Positions 3,617 to 42,579 of a stretch of 64,000 nt of DNA are shown piece by piece (positions within the stretch are counted from its first letter, which is position 1; every line of letters begins with the position of its first letter). Position numbers and translations under genes: made by a program. The notes under the pieces were generated by a model. The model worked only from the letters and a program-made list of their open reading frames with translations, made no database searches and was not told where the DNA came from. This DNA comes from Deltaproteobacteria bacterium (GTDB taxonomy: Bacteria > Lernaellota > Lernaellaia > JACKCT01), in contig JADLEX010000125.1 of the NCBI GenBank assembly GCA_020845895.1, positions 49,729 to 113,728 on the forward strand. The letters are read 5' to 3'.

Positions 3617-5767
3617 TCAGGGTTCGTATTCGTCCGCACCGATGTCCATGGCCGCACCCTTGGGCCGCCGCGTGCCGTCGAAGTCGACCGGGAACCGATT
3701 CCACTCCTCGTTCCAGATCGGCGCGACCAGCGGGAAAAACGACATCGGGATGGGGGTGTAGACCCCCTCGTCGATCAGCGGACTGTCCGGACGCAGGCGC
3801 AAGTCGCCGTTTTCGGCATCGACGAAGAGGGGGTCGACTGAAATATCGGTTCCCGATCGGAAGTTTTGACTCGGTTGACCTTCCGGGATCTCGCGCTCTT
3901 CATCCATCCAATTCTTTAACTCGCCAGAATACATATTGTTATTTTCCTGTACAATGTTTTCGTAGTCAGAAAATGTCCACAAGGCGCTGCCCAACGAAGA
4001 AACAACGATGTTGTTGTTTATGATTTCGGCGTTGAGGTGACCATCGTATTTCGGCTGAAAAATCGAATCCGAAAATAGTTCAATCCCCGTAGCAGAGGTG
4101 CTTGCGCCTCTTACATAAATTGTGTTATCAATAATCGAGGCGTAGACGATGCCAATTGCATAATCAGAAACCTCAATTCCAGAAACAAGAGATAACATGG
4201 TGGAGTCTGATTCGACCGATATGGTGTTTTGTCGATGGAGTCCAAGCTCAAACGAATATATCCCACCACATTGTCCAAGTGCGAATCCCGATGCCAATTC
4301 CATGCAGCGAACACGGATCTCATTCCCAAAAGTTGCGCCAGCCTGGATGCCGATTCCTCCAGAGTTGCCTGTGTCGATATATATTTTGTTGTGAATGACT
4401 AACGGCCCAATATCATAAATAAAAAAATTTGGCGATCTTATGCCGCCAAAGCTATATGTTGCGTCTCCCGTCATGGAGATGTTGTTGTTTGCCACGATAG
4501 AGCGGCCTACGGGTGTCAGATATGAGTAAAAATAGGAATCAACAGCATGGGCGCTTGAAGAGTAAACATTCATATATATATCATTATCGACGATCATCGA
4601 GAGGGCCGACACTCGTATTCCGCGCGAAGAGGATGTTGTGTTCAGTGTGCCCGACACGGAATTTTGCGCAATCATCAAGCCGGGATTTGGAGCATCGAAA
4701 CTTCCGACATCAATCCCAATGAAGTTTTCCGTTCCGCCCATTGTAATATGATTCCCCGTGACATGGACGAGTGAATTCGATGATGAAAGTCCTAAAAATC
4801 GCTCGACAATCGCTGGTTCGATGATGTTAGCGGCCACCCACACCACTTCGGATGCATTCACACTGATTCCATTGACCTCGTTGAAAGTCGCAGGTGCTTC
4901 TATCGTAAACCCATTCACCGCCATCGGACCGACCGCGCCATCCACGAGGATCGTCGTATCCGCCGCGACGGGCTCCACGCGCGTGGCGGGTGCGGTGTCG
5001 GACAGGTCGCGCGTCCATGTTCCGGCCTCGTATCCGCCGAAAATCGACACGGTCGTCACCACGTCTTCGTGATAGGTCCCCGTCGCCACGACCACACCGT
5101 CCGCGCTGCCGAGCGTCGCCGCCGCGATGCCCGCGTTGATCGTCTTCATCGGCAGAAGCGCCGTGCCGGGGTTCGCGTCGTCGCCGCCCGCGCCGTCCAC
5201 ATAAATCACGTTCAGCGAATTCGTCGCCACGTCGCCGTTCGCGCAGTCGTTGTCGATGCCGTCGTCGGGAAAATCGAACATGCCGGGATTCACCGCCGGG
5301 TCCGCGTCGTCGCAGTCGGTCGGCGTCATCGACCAGCCGTTCGGCAGCGGCATGCCCGCGCACATGAAGGTCTGCGTGCCGGGATACGTATCGTAGTCCG
5401 CGTCGCGGTAAACCGTGACGATCTCCCACTTATCGGGATCGTAGTCCCAACAGTCGTCGCCCGCCGGGCAGTTCTCGCCGTATCCGTCGCCGTCATAATC
5501 GACGCACCCGCCCGTGTCGTCATCCGCCGAATCGTCGTCGCCCGTATCGTCATCGGCGTCGTCATCGGTCGCGTCATCGTCGGATGCGTCGTCGTCCGCG
5601 AGATCGTCGTCGGAGGTATCGTCATCCGCCGTGGCCGCGTCATCATCGGCCGTCGCGCTCGACGACGAGTCGTCGTCATCGCCGCACCCCACGGGATTCA
5701 TGCCCGCGAGCGCGCACAGCAGCAACAGCACGATCTCAACACGATGAACCAAGTCGCGATGCGTCAT
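3617..5767 (-). CDS. Secreted/lipo-protein with long poly-Asp acidic linker and right-handed parallel beta-helix (PbH1) repeats; C-terminal DIGADEYEP
   Basis: Signal peptide, then about 70 aa of DDDxxDDD low complexity, then repeated NNxI/IxxN beta-helix-like motifs. The C-terminal DxGAxEY motif is common in beta-helix proteins. Confidence 0.7.
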   Translation of the reverse strand: MTHRDLVHRVEIVLLLLCALAGMNPVGCGDDDDSSSSATADDDAATADDDTSDDDLADDDASDDDATDDDADDDTGDDDSADDDTGGCVDYDGDGYGENCPAGDDCWDYDPDKWEIVTVYRDADYDTYPGTQTFMCAGMPLPNGWSMTPTDCDDADPAVNPGMFDFPDDGIDNDCANGDVATNSLNVIYVDGAGGDDANPGTALLPMKTINAGIAAATLGSADGVVVATGTYHEDVVTTVSIFGGYEAGTWTRDLSDTAPATRVEPVAADTTILVDGAVGPMAVNGFTIEAPATFNEVNGISVNASEVVWVAANIIEPAIVERFLGLSSSNSLVHVTGNHITMGGTENFIGIDVGSFDAPNPGLMIAQNSVSGTLNTTSSSRGIRVSALSMIVDNDIYMNVYSSSAHAVDSYFYSYLTPVGRSIVANNNISMTGDATYSFGGIRSPNFFIYDIGPLVIHNKIYIDTGNSGGIGIQAGATFGNEIRVRCMELASGFALGQCGGIYSFELGLHRQNTISVESDSTMLSLVSGIEVSDYAIGIVYASIIDNTIYVRGASTSATGIELFSDSIFQPKYDGHLNAEIINNNIVVSSLGSALWTFSDYENIVQENNNMYSGELKNWMDEEREIPEGQPSQNFRSGTDISVDPLFVDAENGDLRLRPDSPLIDEGVYTPIPMSFFPLVAPIWNEEWNRFPVDFDGTRRPKGAAMDIGADEYEP

Positions 5768-5859
5768 GACATACCCCGATCCGCGTTGGGGGAAAGTCAA
5801 ATATGGATGATGTTAACACAGGTCGAACGCGGAATGAAAGAAATATTTCTACGGCGTCG

Positions 5860-7185
5860 TCAGCGCAGTACCGACAGACCCTTCGCCCACTCCTCGAAGT
5901 CCCGCGCGGCGCGTTCGACCTTCGCCGCGCGGCGCTCGGCCTTGCCCATCTTTCGCAACGTCTCTTCGATGCCGGGCAATATGCCGAGGTTTGCGTTCAT
6001 CGGTAGATAGGGACGCGCGGGGGACGCAGTGACGTGGCCGTGCAGAGCGCCCATCAGCGTGGTGGGCGGCGGCGGCGGGATCTCGATCCCCCGCGCCTCG
6101 GCCACCGCGAACAGCGCCGCGAGCATGCCGCACGCCGCGCTCTCGGTATAACCCTCGACACCGGTGATCTGACCCGCGAGCCGTACATTCGGCCGCGCTT
6201 CGAGAGCGAGCGTCGGCGTCAGTACGCGCGGGCCGTCCACATATGTATTGCGATGCATGACCCCGAGGCGCAGGAACTCGGCGTTCGCGAGGCCGGGGAT
6301 CATACGCAGCACGCGCTGCTGATCGCCCCACTTCATGCGCGTCTGAAATCCGACGAGGTTGTACGCCTCGCCATGCGCATCCTCGCGACGCAGTTGCACC
6401 ACGGCGAAGGGCCGCCGCCCGGTGCGCGGATCGACGAGGCCGACGGGGCGCATGGGGCCGAAGGCGAGCGTCATCGGCCCGCGCGACGCGATCGACTCGA
6501 TCGGCATGCACGCCTCGAAGACGCGGTCATCCTCGAAGTCGTGCGGCGCCACCTTTTCGGCGGCGACGAGGGCGGCGAAAAACGCTTCGTACTCCTCGCG
6601 CGTCATCGGGCAATTGAGATAGTCGGGATCGCCCTTGTCCCAGCGCCCCGCGGCGAAAACGACCTCGCGGTCGATGGTGTCCGCGGCGACGATGGGCGAG
6701 GTGGCGTCGAAGAAAAAGAGCCCGTCGCTCCCCGTCGCCTCGCGGATCGCGGCGGCGAGGCCGTCCGTCGTAAGCGGACCCGTCGCGACGATCGCGGGTT
6801 CGTCCGGCAACTCGCGGATCTCGGCGCACTCGACGCGCACGCCCTCATCGGCGAGAAGGCGCTCGGTCTCGCGGCTCATCGTCTCACGGTGAACGGCGAG
6901 GCTGCCGCCGGCGGGCACACGCGCGGCGTCGGCCGCGGGCAGGATCACCGAGCCCAAGCGGCGCATCTCGGCTTTGAGCTGGCCCGGCGCGGTCTCGGGG
7001 CGATTGGAGCCGAGCGAATTGGAGCAGACGAGTTCGGCGGGGCCATGGAGCTTGTGCGCGGGGGTCTTCGCCTCGGGTTTGATATCCACGAGACGCACCC
7101 GCAACCCGGTGCGCGCCGCGAGATGCGCGGCCTCGCAGCCCGCTAGACCCGCGCCGACCACGAGCAGGTCGTGGCCGGGCGTCAT
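5860..7185 (-). CDS. trmFO: Methylenetetrahydrofolate--tRNA-(uracil-5-)-methyltransferase TrmFO (Gid)
   Basis: MTPGHDLLVVGAGLAGCEAA FAD-binding N-terminus, plus internal motifs ...SNSLGS... and ...GQITGVEGYTESAA.... The start overlaps the topA stop (ATGA). Confidence 0.85.
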   Translation of the reverse strand: MTPGHDLLVVGAGLAGCEAAHLAARTGLRVRLVDIKPEAKTPAHKLHGPAELVCSNSLGSNRPETAPGQLKAEMRRLGSVILPAADAARVPAGGSLAVHRETMSRETERLLADEGVRVECAEIRELPDEPAIVATGPLTTDGLAAAIREATGSDGLFFFDATSPIVAADTIDREVVFAAGRWDKGDPDYLNCPMTREEYEAFFAALVAAEKVAPHDFEDDRVFEACMPIESIASRGPMTLAFGPMRPVGLVDPRTGRRPFAVVQLRREDAHGEAYNLVGFQTRMKWGDQQRVLRMIPGLANAEFLRLGVMHRNTYVDGPRVLTPTLALEARPNVRLAGQITGVEGYTESAACGMLAALFAVAEARGIEIPPPPPTTLMGALHGHVTASPARPYLPMNANLGILPGIEETLRKMGKAERRAAKVERAARDFEEWAKGLSVLR

Positions 7186-22261: not shown

Positions 22262-24694
22262 ATGAGTGCCGATGCATCGTTGATTCACACGGCCGAACTG
22301 CTCGAGTGGCCGAAGATCCTCTCGCGTCTCGCGGAGCACGCCATGAGCGCGCCGGGCCGCGAGGCGTGCGAACACCTGCCGTTTTGCGACGACGCCGATT
22401 CAGCCGCGCGTGCGCTGGCCGCCGTCACCGAGGCCGCCGCGCTGCTGCGCGAAGCGCTCGCCCCCGCGCTCGCCGACGTCACCGACATCGCGCCCGATCT
22501 GGAGCGCGCCTCGCTCGGCGCGATGCTGGCGGGCGAGGATCTGATCCGCGTCGCCGACGCACTGCGCGCCGCGCGCCGCACCCGCGACGTCCTCGTCGAA
22601 GAGTGGGAACGCACCCCGCGCCTCGCCGAGATCGCGATGCAGCTTGCCGCCGATGAGCCGCTGGAGATGGACATCTTCGCGGCGATCGACCGCGACGGCG
22701 AGGTGAACGACGCGGCGTCGCCGGAACTGGTCGAGCTGCGCCGCCGCCACCGCCGATTGCACCAGCAGATTCTCGACACGATGAACGAGCTGGTGAAGCA
22801 CGGCGAGTGGGCCGAGTTCCTGCAGGACGACTACTACACGGTTCGCAACGGCCGTTACGTGCTGCTCGTGCGCGTCGAGCGCCAGCACAAGATCGAAGGC
22901 ATCGTCCACGACATCTCGGGCAGCGGCCAGTCGCTCTACATCGAGCCCAAGGAGATCACGAATCTCAACAACGTGCTGCGCGGCACCGAGGTCGCCATTG
23001 CGCAGGAGGTCGCGCGTATCCTGCGCGCACTCACCGCCCGCGTTGCCGCCACGGCGGACGCGATCCACGCGAGCGCCGAAGCCCTCGTCGAAATCGACAT
23101 CGTTTTCGCCAAGGCGCGCTATGCTGCTGCGATCGGCGCGTCCGAGCCCACGCTCGCCCCCGAAGGCCGCATGCGCCTGCGTGCGCTGCGCCATCCGCTG
23201 CTGGTCGGGCGCGACGACGTTCGCGCGGCGGCAAACGTCGAGCGCGTCGTCACGAACGACGTGGAGTTCGCGGCCGGCGCGGGGTGCGTGATCGTCACGG
23301 GGCCGAACACCGGCGGCAAAACGGTGTTGCTCAAGGCCGTCGGGCTCGCGGCGCTGTTCGTGCGCGCGGGGATGCATCCGCCGGTCGCGTTCGATTCCGA
23401 GACCGTGTTCTTCGACCGCGTCTTCGCGGTGATCGGCGATCGCCAGTCGATCGAGGCGGGGCTCTCGACTTTCGCGGCGCATCTCGCCGCGCTGCGGGAG
23501 ATCGCGCGCGACGCCGGGCCGCGCAGCCTCGTGCTGCTCGACGAGATCGGCGAAGGCACCGACCCGCGCCAGGGCGTCGCGCTCTCGATGGCGGTGCTCG
23601 AACACCTCGTCGCGAGCGGCGCGCGCACGCTCGCCACCACGCATTTTTCCGAGCTCGCCGCCCTCGCCACGCAGCGCGCGGGTTTCGTCAACGCGTCGAT
23701 GGAGTTCGACCCGGCGACGATGCGCCCGACCTACCGGCTGCGTCTGGGCATTCCGGGGCGATCCGGCGCGTTCGACGTGGCCGAGCGCATGGGCCTTCCC
23801 GCGCCGATTCTCGCCCGCGCGCGCGAGCTGTACGAAGGCGCGGGCACCGAACTGCAAGCGATCATGGAAGATCTTGATCGTGCGCATCAGGAATGGCGGA
23901 GCAAGACCACCGCCGCCGAACGTGACCGCGCGACCGCGCGTGATCTGGTCGAAAAGCAGCGCGAACTGTTGCGCGATCTGGAAAGCAAGAAGCGCGAACG
24001 CGCGCAAAAAGAACTCGCCGCCGTCGAATCGATGTACCGCGACGCGCGCGAGCGCATCCGCGCGCTGTTAGCCGAACTGAAGGAGCGCCCCACGCGCGCC
24101 GAGGCGCAAAGCGTGAAGGAACAGATCGCCCAGGTCGTCGAGGAGGTCCGCGCGCAGACGCCGCCGCCCGAGGACGCGATCCCCGAACGGATCGGCTACG
24201 TGCCGATTCGCGACTGGTCCGCGATGCACGAGGGCGACGCCGTGTATATCGGCGCGCTGCGCGCGAAGGGAAAGCTCGAAACGCTGCCCGACGCGAGATC
24301 GCAACTGCGCGTGCTGGTGGCTGGCGCGCGCGTCACCATCGACGCAGCCGACGTATTTCACCCCGTCGTGGACGAAGCGCCCGCCGAGGTGCGGGTGCGC
24401 GTGCTGCCGCCGGCGCGCGTCGAGGCCGCGTCGTCGAAGGACCGGTCGCTCGACCTGCGCGGGCAGTACGTCGCCGATGCGCTCGACCACACCGCCGAAT
24501 ACCTCGACCTCGCGTGGCGGTCGCGCTGGCATCAGGTGACGATCATTCACGGCCACGGCACGGGCAGCCTCAAGCGTGAGATCCGCGAGTATCTGCGCGG
24601 CGCGCCGTACGCGCTCGCGTTTCGGCCCGGCGAACGGGGCGAGGGCGGCGACGGCGCGACGGTCGTGGACTTCGATTATTCCGACGAGGCGTGA
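22262..24694 (+). CDS. mutS2: Endonuclease MutS2 (MutS domain V ATPase + C-terminal Smr domain)
   Basis: Walker A VTGPNTGGKTVLLK, and a C-terminal Smr motif LDLRGQ...IIHGHGTGSLKREIREYL. Confidence 0.9.
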   Translation: MSADASLIHTAELLEWPKILSRLAEHAMSAPGREACEHLPFCDDADSAARALAAVTEAAALLREALAPALADVTDIAPDLERASLGAMLAGEDLIRVADALRAARRTRDVLVEEWERTPRLAEIAMQLAADEPLEMDIFAAIDRDGEVNDAASPELVELRRRHRRLHQQILDTMNELVKHGEWAEFLQDDYYTVRNGRYVLLVRVERQHKIEGIVHDISGSGQSLYIEPKEITNLNNVLRGTEVAIAQEVARILRALTARVAATADAIHASAEALVEIDIVFAKARYAAAIGASEPTLAPEGRMRLRALRHPLLVGRDDVRAAANVERVVTNDVEFAAGAGCVIVTGPNTGGKTVLLKAVGLAALFVRAGMHPPVAFDSETVFFDRVFAVIGDRQSIEAGLSTFAAHLAALREIARDAGPRSLVLLDEIGEGTDPRQGVALSMAVLEHLVASGARTLATTHFSELAALATQRAGFVNASMEFDPATMRPTYRLRLGIPGRSGAFDVAERMGLPAPILARARELYEGAGTELQAIMEDLDRAHQEWRSKTTAAERDRATARDLVEKQRELLRDLESKKRERAQKELAAVESMYRDARERIRALLAELKERPTRAEAQSVKEQIAQVVEEVRAQTPPPEDAIPERIGYVPIRDWSAMHEGDAVYIGALRAKGKLETLPDARSQLRVLVAGARVTIDAADVFHPVVDEAPAEVRVRVLPPARVEAASSKDRSLDLRGQYVADALDHTAEYLDLAWRSRWHQVTIIHGHGTGSLKREIREYLRGAPYALAFRPGERGEGGDGATVVDFDYSDEA

Positions 24695-25845
24695 CCGGCG
24701 GCGGCATGCTCGAATGCGCGCACGAGCGCGGCGGCGGCCTCGGCGATTTCGGCGCTCGTCGTTCCCCGTCCCAAGGTCAGTCGAACCGCGCCGAGCGCCG
24801 TGGCCGTGTCGAGTCCCTGCGCCAGCAGGACGTCCGACGGCGACTCGCCGCCCTCGTGACATGCGGAGCCGGTGGACGCGGCGATCTCGGGAGCGCCGGC
24901 GAGAATCGCGCTGCCCCGCGCCCCGGGAAACGACACATTGAGGGTATTGGGCAGCCGCTCGGTTTCGTGCCCGTTCAGTCGAATGCCGGGAATCGCCGTC
25001 CACAACCGCGACCACAAGTCGTCGCGCAGGGCCCGAACGCGGGCGGATTCGCGCTCCATATCCCGCGCGGCGATTTCGCAGGCGTAACCCAGCGCGACGA
25101 TGTACGGCACGTTTTCGGTTCCGGGTCGTAGCCCGCGCTCGTGGCCCGCGCCGAGCAAAAACGGACGCAGCGGCGTCCCGCGACGCACGTACAGCGCGCC
25201 GACGCCTTTGGGGGCGTAACACTTGTGCCCCGCCACGGTCAGCAGATCCACGCCCAGCGCGCGCACGTCGATGGGGATCTTGCCGACGGCCTGCGCCGCG
25301 TCGGAGTGCGTGAGCGCGCCGCGTTCGCGGGCCGCGGCGGCGATTTGGGCGATGGGCATGATCGTGCCGGTCTCGTTGTTGGCCAGCATGATGGTGAAGA
25401 GCAGCGTGTCGTCCCTCAGATCGCCGGGCAGCGCGTCGAGGCGCACCCGACCGTTTGCGTCCACGGCCAGCCGGGTCACGGAGTATCCGGTCGCTTCGAG
25501 CGCGTTGCACGGCCGCGCGGTCGCCGGGTGCTCGACGACGGAGGTGAGGATGTGACGGCGGTCTGGGATCGCCGCCGCAACTCCGCGGATCGCCAGATTG
25601 TTCGACTCGGTGCCCCCCGACGTGAAAACGACCTCGTCCGGATCGCAGCCCAGCAGCGCGGCGACCTGTTCGCGGGCGCGGTCCACGGCACTCTTGGCTC
25701 GTTGTCCAAAGATGTGCCCGCTGGACGGATTGCCGTGGTGATCCCTCAGAAACGGGAGCATCGCGTCGACCACTTCGGGATGAATCGACGTCGTGGCATT
25801 GTGGTCCAGATAGATCGGGTCGCGCTCGGTCATTTGCTTCTCCAT
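24676..25845 (-). CDS. Cysteine desulfurase (NifS/IscS-like; possibly selenocysteine lyase function)
   Basis: IYLDHNATT, the SGHIFG-type motifs, AGHKCYAPKGVGALYVR (PLP Lys) and GSACHEG (active-site Cys). The start ATG overlaps the stop of the upstream DsrE-like gene (TGATG). Confidence 0.85.
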   Translation of the reverse strand: MEKQMTERDPIYLDHNATTSIHPEVVDAMLPFLRDHHGNPSSGHIFGQRAKSAVDRAREQVAALLGCDPDEVVFTSGGTESNNLAIRGVAAAIPDRRHILTSVVEHPATARPCNALEATGYSVTRLAVDANGRVRLDALPGDLRDDTLLFTIMLANNETGTIMPIAQIAAAARERGALTHSDAAQAVGKIPIDVRALGVDLLTVAGHKCYAPKGVGALYVRRGTPLRPFLLGAGHERGLRPGTENVPYIVALGYACEIAARDMERESARVRALRDDLWSRLWTAIPGIRLNGHETERLPNTLNVSFPGARGSAILAGAPEIAASTGSACHEGGESPSDVLLAQGLDTATALGAVRLTLGRGTTSAEIAEAAAALVRAFEHAAAGHASSE

Positions 25846-26198
25846 CAGAAGACCAGCACCTTGTCGGATTCCAGAGTCCATTCCGCCTGCTCTGCGAGCG
25901 TACCCCGCTCGACGCCTTCGATCAGCATTTCGACCCGCAGACCGCGGGCATCCATGCAGCTCCCTCAAAGCCGGACGGGGACGCCCTTTGCGATCAGGGC
26001 TTTGATCATCCGCTCGATGTTGTAATAGCCGTTCGGCGTCTTCTGATCCGCGATCGCCGAGGTGACTGCATCGGCCTGCGCGAAGATGCGCAGCTCAACG
26101 CCGTCGCGCTTGGACAGCTCCATCGCCAGACGCAACGCGTTGTAGGTTCGCTCGTTCCCGTAAGGGGCGTCGTTCAGGGTCAATAACAGGGTCGACAC
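25845..26198 (-). CDS. DsrE/YchN-like sulfur-relay protein, putative selenoprotein: in-frame UGA (25965-25967) at the conserved Cys position, 117 aa read-through product
   Basis: The 77-aa N-terminal ORF (MSTLLLTLNDAPYGNERTYNALRLA...VPVRL) stops at a TGA. The same frame continues without interruption as GSCMDARGLRVEMLIEGVERGTLAEQAEWTLESDKVLVF-stop, which is the typical DsrE/YchN C-terminus. The TGA aligns with the first Cys of the family's conserved VPVKL-C-xx-C region (E. coli YchN, quoted from memory). A candidate SECIS hairpin lies immediately downstream. GTG start with AAGAGGAG RBS. Confidence 0.7.
25925..25957 (-). promoter_or_regulatory. Candidate bacterial SECIS element: hairpin GCAU-GGAU-GCCCGC-[GGUCU]-GCGGGU-CGAA-AUGC starting 10 nt after the UGA
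   Basis: Stem-loop read directly. The apical loop GGUCU is identical to the apical loop of the E. coli fdhF SECIS (as I recall it). The loop lies 21 nt downstream of the UGA, against about 18 nt in fdhF. Confidence 0.6.
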
Positions 26199-26309
26199 TG
26201 ATCTGCTCCTCTTAACAAAGGTGATGTTTTCACCCGCGGCGCGCCACGACGCATCGACCGAAGGAAATCGGGGCGTCGTCCGGCAGGCTGAGCGGGGAGT
26301 CGGCGCGGT

Positions 26310-27467
26310 TCAGAACCATTTGTGCAGCCAGTCTTTTTCGAACAGGACCTTCCCGGCGTGCCAGTGGCGACCGGGAGAATACATCTTTATCTGCGGTACC
26401 GGATCCGCGTAAAAATTTCCGCGACCGAATCCCGCCTTGCCGCCACCGGCTTCGATGAAACATTCGCCGTGACCGTCGAAACGCGAATCGGCGTTTCGTC
26501 CGGCGATTCGGGCGCTGACGTTTTTTGCCACGACTTCCGCCTGCCCGTGGGCGAAAACACCCGCTTTGGGAAGCAGTTTTCCCATTTTCAGGGGAATTCC
26601 GACGAGATCGCCAATGACGTACACATCCGGAAACCGTGTTTCCATCGTCGCCCGATCGACCGTCGCCCATCCGCTGTCGCCCAGCAGACCCGCGCGTTTG
26701 ACAACATCGGGCGCCTGGAAGGGCGGCACATACACCAGCAAGTCGAAGTCCGTCGTTGCCCCGTCCCCGAACACGAGGCTCCGCCCCGACGGATCGGCGG
26801 AAGTCACCTGTCGACCGGGGAAATAGCCGATGCCTTTCGATTCGACCATGCTTCGGACCTGCGCCGAAGCCTCCGGTCCGGCCACGCCCATCGGCCCGGG
26901 TTCCGCGGCGTGGATTTCGACGGTCGTCCGCTCGATGATCCGTCTCTTGCGCGCGTCCGCCTCGAGCAACATCGCCGCCTCATAGGGAGCGGCCGGGCAC
27001 TTGTACGCGGGAGCGGCGGTGAGGACCACGACTTTGCCGCCTCGAAACTCCCGCCAGCGATCACGCAAGGCCTCGGCGCCGTCCAGCGTGCAGAACGTCG
27101 ATCCCGATTCCGCAAGCCCCGCGATGCGCTCCGGCGCGGGGTCCGCGCCGAGGGCGATGATGATGTAATCGGCCGTGATGGTTTCCCCTCCGATGACAAC
27201 CCGTTTGCCGTCCGGATCAATTTCCTCGACATTGCCCCGGATCACCTCAATCCCCCGGCGACGAAGCGCGGTCAGCGGACGGGTGATCGACTCCGCCTCG
27301 CGCGTTCCCATCATCAGCCAGAGAAGCGACGGCCAAAACACGTGCCGCTCGTCCCGATCGACCAGGATGACGCGATGAACGTCACTCACGCGTTTTCGCA
27401 ATTCCACCGCCGCCACAACGCCACCGACGCCGCCGCCAAGGACCAGAATGGTTTGACCCGTTTTCAT
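26310..27467 (-). CDS. sqr: Sulfide:quinone oxidoreductase-like FAD-dependent oxidoreductase
   Basis: N-terminal FAD fold VLGGGVGGVVAA, conserved Cys motifs YKCPAAPYE and GHGECFIEAGG, and a C-terminal amphipathic tail. The start overlaps the regulator stop (ATGA). Confidence 0.8.
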   Translation of the reverse strand: MKTGQTILVLGGGVGGVVAAVELRKRVSDVHRVILVDRDERHVFWPSLLWLMMGTREAESITRPLTALRRRGIEVIRGNVEEIDPDGKRVVIGGETITADYIIIALGADPAPERIAGLAESGSTFCTLDGAEALRDRWREFRGGKVVVLTAAPAYKCPAAPYEAAMLLEADARKRRIIERTTVEIHAAEPGPMGVAGPEASAQVRSMVESKGIGYFPGRQVTSADPSGRSLVFGDGATTDFDLLVYVPPFQAPDVVKRAGLLGDSGWATVDRATMETRFPDVYVIGDLVGIPLKMGKLLPKAGVFAHGQAEVVAKNVSARIAGRNADSRFDGHGECFIEAGGGKAGFGRGNFYADPVPQIKMYSPGRHWHAGKVLFEKDWLHKWF

Positions 27468-28162
27468 GAATTCCCCCTGATCGCGTGTTCGTTTGACTCG
27501 CCGCCGACGGCGATTTGCAACCCGCGCGCCCGCCAGTCCGGAATGCCGTCCTCCAGGCGAACGGCGCGGAAGCCCTTCGCGCGAAGGATCCGGACCGCCT
27601 CCACCGCGAGCACGCAGTAAGGCCCGCGGCAGTACGCGACGATCTTGCGACGTTTGGGCAGTGTGGCCAGGTGCCGAACCAACTCATCGAGCGGAACGCA
27701 CTTCGCGCCCGGAATGTGCCCCGCTTCGAATTCTTCCGTGGGGCGGACGTCGAGCACGGTGACCGAACCGTCGCGCACGCGGCGAATCAGGTCGTCTTGA
27801 TCCACCGGCTCCATCGAATCCCGCTCTTCCAGAAACTCCTTCGTGATCGCGTCGATCTCCGTGAGTCGCGATTCGGCGAGAATCCGCATGGAGCGGTAGA
27901 ATTCGCAGACCTCCGGTCCCGCCAGGCGGTACTCGACAAACAGACCGTGTTTTTCGGCCTCGATCAACCGCGCCGCGCGCAGAACCTGGAGGTGTTGGGA
28001 CGTGTTGGCCACGCTCTGCCCGCTCTCGCGAGCGAGAATCTCAACGGTTCGAGGTCCCTGGCACAGCAGGTCGAGCAGTTCGAGCCTCTTGGGGCTGCAG
28101 ACGGCCCGTCCGACCCGGGCGAACTGCTCATAGATCGCGTCTTTGAACTGTCGGCCCTGCAT
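27464..28162 (-). CDS. ArsR/SmtB-family HTH regulator fused to a rhodanese domain (BigR/SqrR-like persulfide sensor candidate)
   Basis: N-terminal ArsR-type wHTH (LELLDLLCQGPRTVEILA...SQHLQVL), and a C-terminal rhodanese domain with active-site loop CRGPYC. Confidence 0.8.
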   Translation of the reverse strand: MQGRQFKDAIYEQFARVGRAVCSPKRLELLDLLCQGPRTVEILARESGQSVANTSQHLQVLRAARLIEAEKHGLFVEYRLAGPEVCEFYRSMRILAESRLTEIDAITKEFLEERDSMEPVDQDDLIRRVRDGSVTVLDVRPTEEFEAGHIPGAKCVPLDELVRHLATLPKRRKIVAYCRGPYCVLAVEAVRILRAKGFRAVRLEDGIPDWRARGLQIAVGGESNEHAIRGNS

Positions 28163-28184
28163 GTCGCCGCACTCCCATCATTCA

Positions 28185-28202
28185 AGTATTCGATTGAATA
28201 CT
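28185..28202. promoter_or_regulatory. Perfect inverted repeat AGTATTC-GATT-GAATACT 23 nt upstream of the ArsR-rhodanese start; candidate operator
   Basis: Read directly. It sits in an AT-rich patch within the divergent promoter region. Confidence 0.45.
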
Positions 28203-30552: not shown

Positions 30553-31371
30553 ATGAGCGAATCCGGCGCAAAACCGCTGCGGCAGGTCGCCCTGCTGTTT
30601 TCCGGGGGCATCGACTCGGCGATGTCGGCGGTGAAGCTCGCCGAGGTCTACGACCGCGTTCACCTCGTCAGCTACGAAAACGGCTTCGGCCACTACAAAC
30701 TCGGCCGCACCAAAAAGCGCTACCGCGAGATCGCCCGCCGCTTCCCCGAAGGCCGCTTCACGCACTCCCTCATGAGCACGCGCGAGCTGTTCGAGCCGCT
30801 CATGAAAGAAGCGACGACGGTCAACTACCAGAAAACCAAGTCGGGCTTCGTGTGGTGCATGAGCTGCAAGCTCGCCATGCACACGCGCACCATCGCGTAC
30901 TGCGTCGAGCACGGCGTCGACCGCGTGGCCGACGGCTCGTCGTCCTCCACGACCGAGATGGTCGAGCAGGCGCCGTTTTCCATCAACAGCGTGCGCCGCT
31001 TCTACGAAGAGTACGGCATCGGCTTCGAGACGCCGGTCTACAACCGCACCCGCGAGGAATCGATCAACGAGCTGCGTTCGATGGGCTTCAAGATGGGCAT
31101 CCGCATCGGCGACCGCTTCCTCGGCATCCAGCCCAAGTGCAAGGCGGGCGAGCTGTACTACCTGCCCTACCTGCTCATGGGCACTTACCCGGATCATAAG
31201 GAAGAAGAGGTCGTCGAGTTCATCGACGACAAGCTGCACTTCGCCCGGGCGTGGATCCGCGACTACTGCGCGGCGAAGGGGCTGGCGATTCCCGGTCCGC
31301 GCGAGCATGACATCGCAACGCCGGCGGCACCCGAAACGCGACTCCATCCGCTGCGGGAGGCGACGGCATGA
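30553..31371 (+). CDS. PP-loop (adenine nucleotide alpha-hydrolase) superfamily ATPase, function unknown
   Basis: LLFSGGIDSAMSA PP-loop motif. Cys residues cluster at WCMSCK. Confidence 0.6.
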   Translation: MSESGAKPLRQVALLFSGGIDSAMSAVKLAEVYDRVHLVSYENGFGHYKLGRTKKRYREIARRFPEGRFTHSLMSTRELFEPLMKEATTVNYQKTKSGFVWCMSCKLAMHTRTIAYCVEHGVDRVADGSSSSTTEMVEQAPFSINSVRRFYEEYGIGFETPVYNRTREESINELRSMGFKMGIRIGDRFLGIQPKCKAGELYYLPYLLMGTYPDHKEEEVVEFIDDKLHFARAWIRDYCAAKGLAIPGPREHDIATPAAPETRLHPLREATA

Positions 31372-31769
31372 GCGTCTGGAGCGCGTTGACCGAGCGGTTC
31401 AATCCGCCGACCGAAAAGAAGCGGTGCTGCCACACGGCGGTGTCGGGCCTCGTGATGGATCACCCCGCCACGCGCACCCTGCTGCCGCCGGCACTGCGCC
31501 GCTCCCTCGGCCTGTTCATCCTGGTCTCGGCGCACGTGTTCACCACGTGCTGGCTCGCGCTCGTCAGCGTCTTCCGCCCGCGCTACCGCCACGTGCTGCG
31601 TTTCCAGCGGCAGTACTTCCGCGACGTGCTTGCGCGCGAACTGTACCCGCCCGAACCCGCCTGCGCCGCCGGCCCCGTCATCCGCACCAGCGCCGGAGAC
31701 AACGAGGAATCCTCCATCCCCAGGTCCCGGTCCCGAGGACAGAACCCTTCTTCACACGCGGAGCAATGA
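31368..31769 (+). CDS. Possible small membrane protein (uncertain)
   Basis: ATGA overlap with the upstream gene and one TM helix. It overlaps a convergent ORF, so one of the two may be spurious. Confidence 0.25.
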   Translation: MSVWSALTERFNPPTEKKRCCHTAVSGLVMDHPATRTLLPPALRRSLGLFILVSAHVFTTCWLALVSVFRPRYRHVLRFQRQYFRDVLARELYPPEPACAAGPVIRTSAGDNEESSIPRSRSRGQNPSSHAEQ

Positions 31770-32413
31770 TCGTAAGCCTGCGGCAACGTCATCGCCCCCA
31801 GCGCCGTTACGAAGGTCTTCTCCCGACGACCCGCATATCGGTCCTCCTTCCCGCAGCGGCCAGGAAGCCTCGACCCCGCCAGGTCCGACGCATCCGCGTT
31901 CGGGCGCGCCTCCACCGCGCGGGCCGCCAGAAGCAACGCCTGCCGGCGCGCCGCCGTCTCGATGGCCGCGAAGTCCAGGTCCGCGGCCGATCCCGGTCCG
32001 ATCAGCGTTTCGATTTCGGCGACGATCTCCGCCGCGAAGGCGATTTTGAAGCCCCCTTTTTGCCCGCCTCGGAAGAGGCCGCCCGGGATTCGTCCAACTC
32101 GGCATCGGCCCAGTGCTCGCAGGCCCCCCAATAGGCATCGACCAACCGGCGGAATTCCTGACCGGCCTCGACCTGCCGTCGCAGCAACGACGCCTGCTCC
32201 GCCGAAACCCAGCGCGAGACCGTCTTGCCCCCGATAACGCGCACCAAACTGACGTAAGGACCGTGACGCGCCCCGGGATCCCCGGCGCACGGGCAACCCG
32301 GCTTGTTGCACTTGACGTATCGCTCCGAAACCGACCCCCGACGCATCGGGCGAGATTCGATCAATCGTGCGAGTAGATCGCGAACCAGCTCCGGAATGGC
32401 GGGCAGTATCGGC
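31583..32413 (-). pseudogene. Hypothetical protein with N-terminal Cys-rich zinc-ribbon-like region (KCNKPGCPCAG), split into two overlapping frames at an AAAAAGGGGG run (-1 shift); frameshifted gene, programmed frameshift, or sequencing error
   Basis: ORF 32002..32460 (frame 1) and ORF 31583..32311 (-1 frame) are both protein-like. They switch at GGC-AAA-AAG-GGG (plus-strand 32052-32061 is CCCCCTTTTT). Confidence 0.45.
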
Positions 32414-39826: not shown

Positions 39827-40041
39827 CGGAGCGCCATTCGCACAAATGTCGGCGTAGGGGCGCGATTCATCGCGCCCTCTTCGGCGAAGGACGGGTCGCA
39901 CGCGAATGATTCCCGCGCTGCTCAGGGGCAAGCTGACGCGAAGCGAGGAGACGTTGGAGGACCTTCTGACCTCCAAACGCCAACCGCCGGCCTCGGTTGA
40001 AGGGGGAACGCGCAGTCGTTCGTTTTTTGTTCGCTTTTGTC

Positions 40042-40070
40042 TTGACAACGCGTTTTGGTCGCGCTATCCT
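40042..40070 (+). promoter_or_regulatory. Sigma70-like promoter TTGACA-N17-TATCCT upstream of the TcmP-like gene
   Basis: Read directly. AAGGAG RBS at 40095-40100. Confidence 0.5.
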
Positions 40071-40108
40071 AGCGATCGTGCAATAGGCACCGAAAAGGAG
40101 TGCGAAAC

Positions 40109-41218
40109 ATGATAGATGACTTTTTTAAGCAACAGACCGATCAATCGCGGGTTAAAACGGCTATCGTTTCAAAGTATTTTAATGCATGGGCGACGATTAT
40201 GGCGACAAGATCTGCCGCAGACAAAATATGCTATATAGATTTTTTTTCCGGCCCAGGCTTATATGCCGATGGCTCCCTTTCGACTCCTTTAATCGTTACA
40301 TCTATGGTATTAGAAAACCCAAAACTGAAATCAATTGTTCAATTAATATTCAACGACAGCGATAACCATAACATTGAAAAACTTCAAGTCGCTTTACATA
40401 ACGCATCTAATATTAATAGCCTCAAATATCCTCCAGCCTTCTGGAATGTAGACGCCGGACAAAGTCTCGCAGATGAATTTAAGAAAATAAAGATGGCACC
40501 CTCTCTTGTGTTTATCGATCCTTGGGGGTATCGTGGATTAAGCATAGATCTGATTTCTTCTATGACAAAAGACTGGGGGTCTGACGGAATAGTATTTTTC
40601 AATTACAACCGAGTCAATATGGGCTTAAGCAATCCCACTGTTTCTCATCATATGTTAAAATTGTTCGGCCCCGAACGACTACCCGCTGTACTTGAAAAAA
40701 TTCGAGATGCAGGCCCTGATGAACGCGAATTGACGATCGTTGACGAATTTGGAGGTGCGATCGCAGATGCAGTTGGCACGCGTTACGTTTTACCATTCCG
40801 TTTTATCGAAGAAAGTAGGGATAGAACCAGCCATTACTTATATTTTATCAGCAAACACCCATTGGGGTACGTTATCATGAAAAATATAATGGCAAAGGAG
40901 AGTGAACGAGATCAAGATTCAGTGCCTTCATTTGAATACAGCCCCGCCACTCCGAGACAGCAACTGTTATTCCTGTTTGTGCGAAAATTAAATAACCTGA
41001 AAGACGATCTAATCGCAGCATTTGCTGGAAGGACAGCTAAAATGATAGATATCTTTGAAGAGCACCATGTCGGGACTCCGTTTATCGAAAAGAATTACAA
41101 GACAGCCCTGATGGAACTTGAAAAAGAAAATCGAATTTTTGCGGAGCCGAACGCGAAAAATCGAAAGAAGAATACATTTGCAGACCGAGTTGTTGTTTCA
41201 TTTCCGGAGATTCGCTGA
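40109..41218 (+). CDS. tcmP: Three-Cys-motif partner protein TcmP-like; strongly AT-rich gene (~40% GC) with SAM-MTase-like motifs (IDFFSGPG...FIDPWGY)
   Basis: Family assigned from memory of the TIGRFAM 'three-Cys-motif partner protein TcmP'. That family always neighbours a Gp37/Gp68 three-Cys protein, as it does here. The stop overlaps the next start (TGATG). Confidence 0.7.
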
Positions 41219-41937
41219 TGGCTCGATCCGCCATCGAATGGACCGAATCGACTTGGAACCCGGTCACGGGTTGCACGAAGATCAGCGCGGGGTGCAAGCA
41301 CTGCTATGCCGAACGCATGGCGCTGCGTCTACAGGCGATGGGACAGGCCAACTATCGCAACGGTTTTGATGTCACGCTGCACGAGCATGCGCTCGCGATT
41401 CCTTCGCGGCTGAAAAAACCGCAGACGATCTTCGTCAACTCGATGAGCGACCTTTTCCACGTCGACATCCCCGACGCCTACATCGCGCGCGTTTTCGACG
41501 CGATGAACGCCGCTCCCTGGCACACCTATCAGGTGCTGACGAAGCGCGCCGATCGTTTGGAGAAATTGGCGCCGCGCCTCCCGTGGCGTCCGCACATCTG
41601 GATGGGCGTGAGCGTCGAGAACAACGACCATCTGTTTCGCGTAGAGCACCTGCGCGCGACCCGCGCGCACGTGAAGTTCCTGTCGCTCGAACCGCTGCTC
41701 GGCCCGCTGCCCGATCTGGATCTGCGCGGCATCGACTGGGCCATCGTCGGCGGCGAATCCGGCCCCGGTGCGCGGCCGATGGACCCCGCGTGGGTGGTCG
41801 GCATCCGCGATCGTTGCGCGCGCGCCAAGGTGCCGTTCTTCTTCAAGCAGTGGGGCGGCGTGAACAAGAAGCGCGCCGGACGCCTGCTCGACGGACGCAC
41901 CTGGGATGAGATGCCGGAGCGAACCGTCCACGCGTGA
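41218..41937 (+). CDS. Phage Gp37/Gp68-family three-Cys-motif protein (DUF5131)
   Basis: N-terminal [26 protein letters not shown] (C-x6-C-x2-C). C-terminal [10 protein letters not shown]...FFFKQWGG, typical of the family as recalled. Confidence 0.75.
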
Positions 41938-41988
41938 GACTTCGAGTCTCCCCTTGATTCTCGGCTTAACCCGGGCGAGCTTGGCCGC

Positions 41989-42579
41989 ATGTCCTTTTGG
42001 AACGACGTTGCCCAATACGGGCTGCCTCAGCGGGCGAAGCTCGCGATCGTGGTCGCGGCGATCGCGATCGGCGCGATGGCGATGCGCGCCGAATCCGAAC
42101 GGCCCATCAGCGGCATGGTGATGGATTTCGAGGACGACGCGCAGCTCGAGCGGCTCGTGTGGCAGTGCCCGATCGCGATGGAGACGACGGATGCGATTTC
42201 GGGACGCGGCCGGCGCGCGTTGCTCGTCCATCTCAAGCCGGGCTTGTACCCGGGCGTCGAGATCCACGATCCACCCGGCGACTGGCGCGACGGCGACGCG
42301 CTGGAGTTCACGGTCGCCGCGCCCGATGCGGCGGGCGCGATGCTGCACGTGCGGATCGACGACGCGGATTCGCGCGAGGACTACGATCGGCGATACGAGG
42401 GGCGGATCAGGCTGCAAGGCCCGGCGCAACGCGTGCGCATCCCGCTCGACGAAATCGCCGCCGCGCCGACGAAGGACCCCCTCGACCTGTCACGAATCAC
42501 GAAAATCGTGATCTACCTCTACCGACTCGACCGCGACGTGGACATGACGATCGACGACATCCGGTTGGTGAAGTCGTAG
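41989..42579 (+). CDS. Hypothetical secreted/membrane-anchored protein
   Basis: N-terminal hydrophobic segment. No family recognised. Confidence 0.4.
   Translation: MSFWNDVAQYGLPQRAKLAIVVAAIAIGAMAMRAESERPISGMVMDFEDDAQLERLVWQCPIAMETTDAISGRGRRALLVHLKPGLYPGVEIHDPPGDWRDGDALEFTVAAPDAAGAMLHVRIDDADSREDYDRRYEGRIRLQGPAQRVRIPLDEIAAAPTKDPLDLSRITKIVIYLYRLDRDVDMTIDDIRLVKS

Follow-up and report, generated by a model that had tools for sequence, protein, structure and literature searches.

Introduction

In the SqrR and BigR systems, an ArsR-type winged-helix repressor is encoded beside genes for sulfide:quinone oxidoreductase (SQR), sulfurtransferase, and persulfide-dioxygenase-type proteins, a palindromic operator lies at the promoter under control, and the switch is likely to be a thiol pair. 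These features are shared by the regulator family of a putative four-gene operon on the minus strand of a 64,000-nucleotide stretch of DNA from a Deltaproteobacteria bacterium (assembly GCA_020845895.1, contig JADLEX010000125.1, positions 49,729 to 113,728), called the window below. This operon encodes an ArsR–rhodanese regulator, an SQR, a DsrE-family sulfur carrier with a putative selenocysteine (Sec) residue, and a NifS-like cysteine desulfurase. However, the probable sensor here is a rhodanese domain, fused at the C-terminus and bearing a CRGxYC loop that is invariant, whereas SqrR and BigR (ArsR cluster 4) are defined by an α2/α5 cysteine pair that forms a tetrasulfide bridge and is not conserved in the present regulator family. 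An initial annotation of this DNA had pointed out a resemblance to the BigR, CstR, and SqrR operons, which is now backed by the sulfur genes linked to the regulator and by a conserved operator-like site.

The CstR-controlled cst operon of Staphylococcus aureus, which we take to consist of cstR, tauE, cstA, cstB, and sqr, presumably also places an SQR and rhodanese-, TusA-, and DsrE-type sulfurtransferase domains under the control of one repressor, and CstA reportedly accepts sulfur from a cysteine desulfurase. Unlike the window operon, however, the cst operon is taken here to have a repressor of the CsoR family, carriers fused in one protein, no desulfurase gene, and no selenocysteine. A DsrE-fold protein paired with a pyridoxal 5′-phosphate (PLP) cysteine desulfurase is also a feature of the E. 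coli YchN/CsdA–CsdE–CsdL and IscS–TusA–TusBCD systems. TusBCD differs from the window DsrE in being a heterohexamer with a defined tRNA-thiolation output, and E. coli YchN is presumably not encoded beside a desulfurase, an SQR, or an ArsR–rhodanese regulator.

Two further precedents concern the carrier. In Methylacidiphilum fumariolicum SolV, the gene for a type III SQR shares a transcript with those for small sulfur carriers (MFUM_v2_0219-21) and is up-regulated by H2S; however, the carriers there are DsrE2 and TusA rather than a YchN-type protein, and no ArsR–rhodanese regulator, NifS, or selenocysteine was reported in that operon (PMC10205796). Moreover, a family of DsrE-like selenoproteins (PF02635) with a UxxC motif and a selenocysteine insertion sequence (SECIS) directly downstream of the Sec codon has been catalogued since 2005 (Zhang, Fomenko and Gladyshev 2005; e.g., Desulfovibrio vulgaris; PMC1088965, PMC1794560, PMC13188914). 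The window DsrE resembles this family, for which no function or context was given, whereas the Sec form described here is YchN-type and stands in a regulator–SQR–DsrE–NifS operon.

DsrE-like UxxC selenoproteins, SQR-plus-carrier operons, and ArsR persulfide sensors are therefore each already known singly. The initial annotation held that the combination had not been described, and this claim survives in part, i.e., the components are known (PMC1088965, PMC13188914, PMC10205796) and the module is common in public genomes, whereas the fused regulator and the link to NifS appear to be undescribed in the literature searched. What also appears to be new is the systematic pairing of a YchN-type DsrE with both a type III-like SQR and a dedicated NifS-like desulfurase, as well as the occurrence of a Sec-containing DsrE in that context.

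Gene content and layout of the operon

Four co-directional open reading frames (ORFs) run from 28162 to 24676 in the order regulator, SQR, DsrE, and NifS-like desulfurase (Table 1). On the evidence of the sequence, they are predicted to form one operon for the handling of sulfide and reactive sulfur; the probable explanation, put forward with moderate confidence, is that the operon is autoregulated and serves sulfide and sulfane sulfur (persulfide) in a stepwise relay. The ATG start codon of the SQR gene overlaps the TGA stop codon of the regulator gene (ATGA). A minus-strand scan of the spacer between the SQR gene and dsrE found no terminator-like site, and this spacer is not a conserved element, because it is only 8 nt long in the closest relative found, a locus referred to here as L166 (GCA_964586775.1; other homologous loci are numbered likewise). 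At the DsrE/NifS junction, a TGATG overlap had been proposed. The letters are indeed present; however, the desulfurase probably starts at ATG 25833, because an identical public protein (P0121, annotated with 385 residues) and the L166 homologue both start at MTERDP and L166 lacks the first ATG. With this start, the junction is a gap of 11 nt rather than an overlap, whereas the alternative ATG at 25845 would give a protein of 389 residues and a junction of −1.

The remainder of the initial annotation of this layout, i.e., the four minus-strand genes, the ATGA overlap, and the 111-nt gap, is found in the sequence, with the same gene order in L166, and its four family assignments are retained in the comparisons below. 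On one side, the operon meets a convergent mutS2; on the other, a hypothetical gene runs divergently, with a tyrosine phenol-lyase gene behind it. These flanking genes are unrelated to sulfur or selenium. The 3′ end of mutS2 overlaps the 3′ end of the desulfurase gene by 19 bp (24676-24694), leaving no room for an intrinsic terminator between the two genes.

Table 1. Features of the putative operon and its upstream region, in positions of the window
Feature	Positions	Strand	Details
NifS/IscS-like class I cysteine desulfurase, 385 residues	24676..25833	-	Aminotran_5 (PF00266), 1.3e-76, 258 bits
YchN-type DsrE sulfur-carrier selenoprotein (putative), 117 residues, U78-G-S-C81	25845..26198	-	GTG start, TGA stop at 25847-25845
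SECIS-like hairpin, GCCCGC-GGUCU-GCGGGU	25933..25949	-	begins 15 nt past the UGA
In-frame UGA, putative Sec residue 78	25965..25967	-	aligns with the first Cys of CxxC
Spacer between SQR gene and dsrE, 111 nt	26199..26309	-	GAGGAG ribosome-binding site, 9 nt upstream of the GTG
Type III-like SQR, 385 residues	26310..27467	-	Pyr_redox_2, 2.7e-25
ArsR/SmtB winged-helix regulator with C-terminal rhodanese domain, 232 residues	27464..28162	-	Pfam HTH_5 and Rhodanese
Candidate operator palindrome, ATTCAA-N8-TTGAAT	28180..28199		17 nt upstream of the regulator ATG
Predicted regulator-binding site, TATTCAATCGAATACTTGAATG	operator region		candidate target for an electrophoretic mobility shift assay

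The SQR assignment is based on comparison with both structures and families. The best PDB matches of the window protein are human SQOR and the Aquifex SQR (~1e-29), and the solved Acidithiobacillus SQR is matched at a similar level. Its flavin adenine dinucleotide (FAD)-binding motif GGGVGG lies at residue 11, and the two catalytic cysteines, Cys157 (YKCPAAPYE) and Cys336 (HGEC), align with Cys201 and Cys379 of the human enzyme, so that the protein carries the Rossmann motif and the redox cysteine pair expected of a type III SQR. In published type III SQRs, the catalytic cysteines are found at about residues 159 and 339, and a selenoprotein subtype has HxxU where the window protein has HxxC (PMC13047784, PMC13188914). 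The best NCBIfam match is the type III SQR model NF049943 (2.8e-65, 221 bits vs. a cut-off of 525), with other families far behind; the score lies under the cut-off of this model, which is the only one available for type III and describes the selenoprotein subtype.

The desulfurase has the PLP-binding Lys204 (GHKC) and the catalytic Cys325 (STGSAC) of a class I enzyme, which, together with the Aminotran_5 match, agrees with its original assignment as NifS-like. It does not reach the level of the nitrogenase NifS equivalog model (TIGR03402, 460 bits vs. a cut-off of 530.75), is below the IscS and DndA equivalog cut-offs too, and is far from the selenocysteine-lyase model SclA (119 bits vs. a cut-off of 525). 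The protein is assigned to a putative separate subfamily linked to DsrE.

The ArsR–rhodanese regulator and its predicted operator

The fusion of an ArsR-type helix-turn-helix to a rhodanese domain was confirmed by Pfam matches to HTH_5 (PF01022; 7e-11, 42.2 bits vs. a cut-off of 22) and Rhodanese (PF00581; 2e-16, 60.6 bits vs. 22.2), and the NCBIfam model HTH_metalloreg (NF033788; 61.8 bits, cut-off 55) places the protein in the ArsR/SmtB family. In the rhodanese domain, the catalytic cysteine opens a six-residue loop, C178-R-G-P-Y-C183, within AYCRGPYC. Both cysteines of the C-R-G-x-Y/F-C loop are kept in 42 of 42 regulators obtained by SQR-anchored retrieval, which is independent of the motif. 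By comparison, Cys34 and Cys86 of the ArsR domain are kept in 42/82 and 35/82 homologues, respectively, and in 20/38 and 13 of about 29 in a second set. The rhodanese loop is therefore the likely sensory site, since its cysteine pair is invariant and the ArsR-domain cysteines are kept in only about half of the proteins.

The regulator family is large. It comprises 519 clusters at 50% identity (E ≤ 1e-30), mainly of 215–235 residues, and at least 596 stretches were confirmed in the genomic search, with sources in Acidobacteriota, Myxococcota, Gemmatimonadota, Desulfobacterota, Verrucomicrobiota, Actinomycetota, and other phyla. Its regulon is wider than the sulfur module, as about one third of the regulator-anchored loci have no nearby DsrE, SQR, NifS, major facilitator superfamily (MFS), or metallo-beta-lactamase-fold (MBL) gene (L006, L009, L014, L017, L023, L026-L029, and others). 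In an alternative explanation, the operon belongs to a general stress or metal(loid) regulon: the signal would be arsenite, chromate, peroxide, or another electrophile, and the sulfur genes would be just one cargo set among several. Members of the family do precede MMPL, AcrB, peroxiredoxin, fatty-acid hydroxylase, and cation-efflux genes in some loci, and rhodanese proteins occur in chromate resistance, with the ChrE model giving a weak match. However, neither an α3 CxC nor any other ArsR metal site is conserved among the regulator homologues, in which only the rhodanese cysteine pair is invariant, and DsrE, SQR, and MFS genes are by far the commonest neighbours. A general stress or metal(loid) regulon is hence quite improbable.

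A candidate operator was found by an inverted-repeat search upstream of 120 regulator genes, in which ATTCAA-N8-TTGAAT was the dominant motif. In the window, the exact motif occurs once in the entire 64 kb, and with its flanks it reads TATTCAA-TCGAATAC-TTGAATg (28200-28179). With up to two mismatches, the palindrome is present within 200 nt upstream of 76 of the 118 homologous regulator genes, and it is this recurrence that makes it a likely operator. Among 111 matches in 1.40 Mb, 80 fall upstream of regulators at a median of ~19 nt from the start, whereas the background density predicts ~0.5 such matches (~140× background). The flanking T and A, which are outside the search pattern, are kept in 68/76 and 66/76 cases, respectively, giving the consensus TATTCAA-N8-TTGAATA, and the L166 palindrome likewise lies 17 nt before the regulator start. 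The comparative support for the existence and placement of a predicted autoregulatory operator is thus strong. The inverted repeat noted initially at 28185-28202 (AGTATTC-aatc-GAATACT) is real as well, and the conserved palindrome overlaps with it.

Some promoters carry two copies of the operator (L033, L039, L053, L103, and L167), with an offset of exactly 8 bp in L053, L103, and L167, and the N8 spacer of many operators, including that of the window, holds a GTATTC half-site. The doubled operators and the half-sites suggest that the binding site may be nested or may accommodate more than one dimer.

Literature searches on an ArsR–rhodanese fusion regulator found nothing relevant within the searchable literature. 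The large sequence-network survey of ArsR proteins by which the persulfide-sensor cluster was defined dropped those with more than 150 residues (PMC10054925), and the ArsR–rhodanese class falls outside that survey for this reason. The fusion, together with its operator, appears to represent an uncharacterised class.

The putative selenocysteine codon of dsrE

The third gene encodes a DsrE-family protein (Pfam DsrE, 1e-21, 77.7 bits, cut-off 22.7), which E. coli YchN (PDB 1JX7), the closest solved structure, matches over its full length (6e-31). The column of the in-frame UGA is occupied by cysteine in 15 of 15 aligned homologues, so that the CxxC motif would become UxxC. The simplest alternative to Sec insertion is that this TGA is a genuine stop codon, with dsrE either truncated at 77 residues or a pseudogene and the downstream frame a product of chance. 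Such a stop would agree with gene callers, which split the L166 dsrE at the UGA into ORFs of 77 and 36 residues, and with the absence of visible Sec machinery in the window. However, the frame stays open for 39 codons past the UGA, and these align with the second, conserved half of YchN/DsrE, where both the other cysteine of the motif and the terminal DKVLVF are found. Moreover, TGA and frame are both kept in L166 at 79% DsrE identity, with synonymous changes in between, and TGA is found at exactly the same column in three other lineages, each time with a hairpin. A genuine stop is accordingly extremely improbable, and DsrE stands as the selenoprotein candidate that the initial annotation had named, with a UGA at an invariant cysteine column and a conserved frame downstream.

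In total, UGA occupies this column in five DsrE genes from at least four lineages, i.e., those of the window, L166, L044 (Thermoanaerobaculaceae), L071, and L079 (KSB1), and each Sec form is nested among Cys forms. Cysteine is encoded by 95 of the 100 full-length DsrE genes retrieved in these modules, counted with exclusion of the fragments and degenerate copies in L007, L012, L015, and L085.

The hairpin that follows the UGA is the same in L071 and L166, with a compatible change of the closing G-U to G-C in L166, and L044 and L079 have hairpins of other sequence at the same place. Its loop matches what we take to be the SelB-binding loop of E. coli fdhF. Judged by its position shortly downstream of the codon and by the G in its apical loop, it qualifies as a putative bacterial SECIS element. 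Folding energies were compared between Sec and Cys forms over nt 4-51 downstream of the codon. They were −24.8, −20.7, −17.5, and −15.0 kcal/mol for the four independent lineages with Sec, as compared with a mean of −13.9 kcal/mol (standard deviation 2.8, minimum −20.0 kcal/mol) for 92 Cys forms in a first run, and in the final run the Sec forms folded more stably than 96 Cys forms (one-sided Mann–Whitney p = 0.005). The minimum-free-energy fold of the 68 nt after the UGA alone is not significant (z = −1.8) and tells less than the comparison of Sec with Cys forms. At the codon level, the window and L166 use identical codons for 21 of 25 identical residues around the UGA and the hairpin vs. 45 of 69 elsewhere.

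The presence of Sec also raises the question of whether the operon handles selenium rather than sulfur, an option offered in the initial annotation. In such a selenium-trafficking route, the desulfurase would be a selenocysteine lyase, DsrE would carry a perselenide, the flavoprotein would act on selenide species, and the regulator would sense selenium. Class I desulfurases accept selenocysteine as well as cysteine, and the window flavoprotein weakly resembles TIGR03169 (63 bits vs. a cut-off of 310), whose members are domains that precede SelD at the N-terminal side. A DsrE-like domain is also part of the selenium-linked YedF (PMC5322559). However, about 95% of the modules have a Cys-DsrE, among which single Sec forms are dispersed, the SclA score of the desulfurase is far under the cut-off, no sel or yed genes were found in scans of the 20 largest ORFs of the window or among the called neighbours of L166-L170, and the accessory genes (SQR, MBL/persulfide-dioxygenase-like, rhodanese) belong to sulfur chemistry. 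Selenium trafficking is for these reasons very improbable, and that part of the initial annotation is not upheld. We infer instead that Sec is a lineage-specific kinetic upgrade of the carrier nucleophile rather than a sign of selenium metabolism.

Conservation of the gene combination

Gene neighbourhoods were collected from three anchors, namely the regulator in species-representative genomes (80 loci), the window-type SQR on metagenome contigs (80 loci), and the NifS subfamily (five loci), with bit-score filters applied to the counts. Around the 80 regulators, there are 31 DsrE, 25 SQR, 18 NifS, 23 MFS, and 14 MBL genes, and all four operon genes are present in five loci. Around the 80 SQRs, the corresponding numbers are 62 DsrE, 40 regulators, 10 NifS, 7 MFS, and 5 MBL, again with five complete quartets; among the 50 of these loci with at least 1.5 kb of upstream sequence, 44 have DsrE and 35 the regulator. 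All five NifS-anchored loci have an adjacent DsrE, three have an SQR, three a regulator, and three the entire quartet. These counts indicate a core of regulator, YchN-type DsrE, and SQR, with the NifS-like desulfurase as a recurrent accessory linked to DsrE; the full quartet is a minority arrangement, seen in ~6% of the sampled loci. Genes for SQR, DsrE, rhodanese, MBL, MFS transporter, and NifS proteins are recurrent neighbours of the regulator family, and the MBL protein among them is related to the dioxygenase part of Blh and is persulfide-dioxygenase-like.

The commonest order in the module is regulator–DsrE–SQR. The initial annotation had proposed a search for syntenic operons in related genomes, and such operons do exist: in L166, all four genes recur in unchanged order, with the same UGA and hairpin and with 79% identity in both NifS and DsrE, and the order regulator–SQR–DsrE–NifS is also found in L167, L001/L002, and L040. 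In L001/L002/L040, the SQR slot is taken by a different SQR subtype (31% identity), whereas orthologues of the other three proteins are present, with identities of 63% (regulator), 60% (DsrE), and 53% (NifS). This speaks for an SQR being functionally required in that slot.

In L167 (Myxococcales), a gene for an OsmC-related protein (4465-4992) is located between dsrE and nifS. This protein matches the NCBIfam domain “OsmC-related (seleno)protein” at 6e-19, below the cut-off, and OsmC-like proteins are another family of the thiol-peroxidase type with known Sec forms. Two degenerate copies were also encountered, i.e., a DsrE remnant at L012:10519-10635, in which TGA is followed by G-S-F and an intact N-terminal half is missing, and a NifS homologue at L032:4681-5667 that is broken into three pieces. 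These copies suggest that the module may be decaying in some genomes.

The linkage data also bear on whether the relay serves biosynthesis rather than detoxification. In such a biosynthetic relay, the NifS-like enzyme would load DsrE for thio-cofactor formation, tRNA thiolation, or Fe–S assembly, the SQR would be a salvage entry, and the regulator would tune supply. Its plausibility comes from the fact that the NifS–DsrE pair also occurs alone, without SQR or regulator, in L168 and L170, and it is in line with the reported interaction of YchN with the CSD desulfurase (PMC3878590), with the lack of a gene for a sink enzyme in the window operon, and with a PP-loop-like (SGGIDS) protein encoded 2.4 kb away. 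However, in the SQR-anchored set, dsrE is a direct same-strand neighbour of the SQR gene in 58/80 loci vs. 8/80 for the link to NifS, no thiolation enzyme is conserved in the neighbourhoods, and the module recruits a persulfide-dioxygenase-like MBL protein, a stand-alone rhodanese, and an MFS exporter, which are typical of detoxification. A biosynthetic role is therefore considered unlikely, and the sulfide and sulfane-sulfur operon is the reading followed below.

Proposed mechanism

The mechanism proposed here builds on what sequence and comparison provide, i.e., the predicted operon and operator, the protein families with their catalytic residues, the putative Sec codon with its hairpin, and the DsrE–SQR and DsrE–NifS linkages. 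The regulator would bind as a repressor to TATTCAA-N8-TTGAATA, which would lie downstream of the promoter of the regulator gene and ahead of the ribosome-binding site. Sulfane sulfur would load Cys178, and formation of a per- or polysulfide link to Cys183 would then cause release from the DNA. Once expressed, the SQR would oxidise H2S at its Cys157/Cys336–FAD site and pass the electrons to quinone, as expected from its homology. From there, the sulfane sulfur may be transferred to the YchN-type DsrE, with U78 as the attacking residue, a step to which the near-obligate adjacency of the two genes points. The UGA would be decoded with the help of the following hairpin, and Sec would speed the sulfur transfer. 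The NifS-like PLP enzyme, by its linkage, may be a dedicated partner of DsrE and thus offer a second, cysteine-derived route to carrier-bound persulfide.

Two of these links have independent precedents: interactions of YchN with the cysteine-desulfurase proteins CsdA, CsdE, and CsdL have been reported (PMC3878590), as would be the case for DsrE and NifS, and a type III SQR–TusA–DsrE2 operon is up-regulated by H2S (PMC10205796), which parallels the DsrE–SQR linkage. A broader generalisation is put forward more tentatively, as possible but short of probable: the family may constitute a new and widespread class of one-component sulfane-sulfur sensors, in which the CRGxYC loop rather than a cysteine of the DNA-binding domain is the switch and acts through the TATTCAA-N8-TTGAATA operator, the YchN-type DsrE is the obligate acceptor of persulfide from both the type III SQR and the dedicated NifS-like desulfurase, and Sec has been recruited repeatedly to make the transfer faster.

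Several observations weigh against this assignment as a sulfane-sulfur operon with a Sec-containing carrier. For the regulator, the match to the BigR model is marginal (E = 0.002, 18 bits vs. a cut-off of 155), and the best PDB match of the ArsR domain is an uncharacterised mycobacterial ArsR (2KKO). In the regulator-anchored loci, genes for efflux pumps (MMPL and AcrB), a peroxiredoxin, a fatty-acid hydroxylase, a LolA-like protein, and a PNP_UDP_1 phosphorylase also recur, and because the family also precedes efflux pumps and other such genes, its signal could be broader than sulfane sulfur. A sigma-70 scan upstream of the regulator recognised no minus-strand promoter; a TTGACG...TATAGT pair is present there, with a spacer of just 12–14 nt. 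For the enzymes, both the SQR and the NifS assignments are under the NCBIfam equivalog cut-offs, and the C-terminus of the SQR is ~40 residues shorter than that of the Aquifex enzyme, for which reason its coupling to quinone and membrane is only putative. The window operon contains no persulfide dioxygenase, sulfite exporter, or other sink gene, and the fate of the sulfur is therefore not encoded in it. As for Sec, the energy of the window hairpin itself falls no lower than the 11th percentile of the Cys forms. Neither a tRNA nor a tRNA-Sec was detected by ARAGORN in the 64 kb, where Rfam at gathering thresholds likewise returned nothing, and the scan of the 20 largest ORFs detected no selD-, selA-, selB-, yedE-, or yedF-type gene.

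Other features of the window

The PP-loop-like protein near the operon (30553-31371, plus strand) has 272 residues and an N-terminal SGGIDS motif of the ATP-pyrophosphatase kind seen in tRNA thiolases and QueC. It has no Pfam match at 1e-8 and a marginal QatC/QueC-like NCBIfam match (E ~3e-4), and its gene is located downstream of that for tyrosine phenol-lyase. At 31583-32311 on the minus strand, ~3.4 kb from the operon, part of an ISKra4-family transposase is weakly matched (E = 3.6e-5), possibly as the remnant of a mobile element. Farther away, a 731-residue protein (58463-60658, minus strand) has an unusual architecture, in which the DUF4379 treble-clef zinc finger is repeated ten times (E = 1e-201), and it also matches DnaJ in part. 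Two islands of low GC content, 4001-6000 (0.556) and 40001-42000 (0.505), stand out from the ~0.65 elsewhere, and no tRNA or Rfam family was detected in them.

Implications

The comparison gives the DsrE-like selenoproteins and the YchN family a testable context, namely that of a carrier between an SQR or NifS-like desulfurase and downstream acceptors, and the large, phylum-spanning ArsR–rhodanese family comes with a predicted operator. Sec/Cys switching would then occur at several nodes of sulfide handling, i.e., at DsrE in the operon described here and at type III SQR and rhodaneses elsewhere, and it bears on the question of why selenium is recruited at nucleophiles that carry persulfide.

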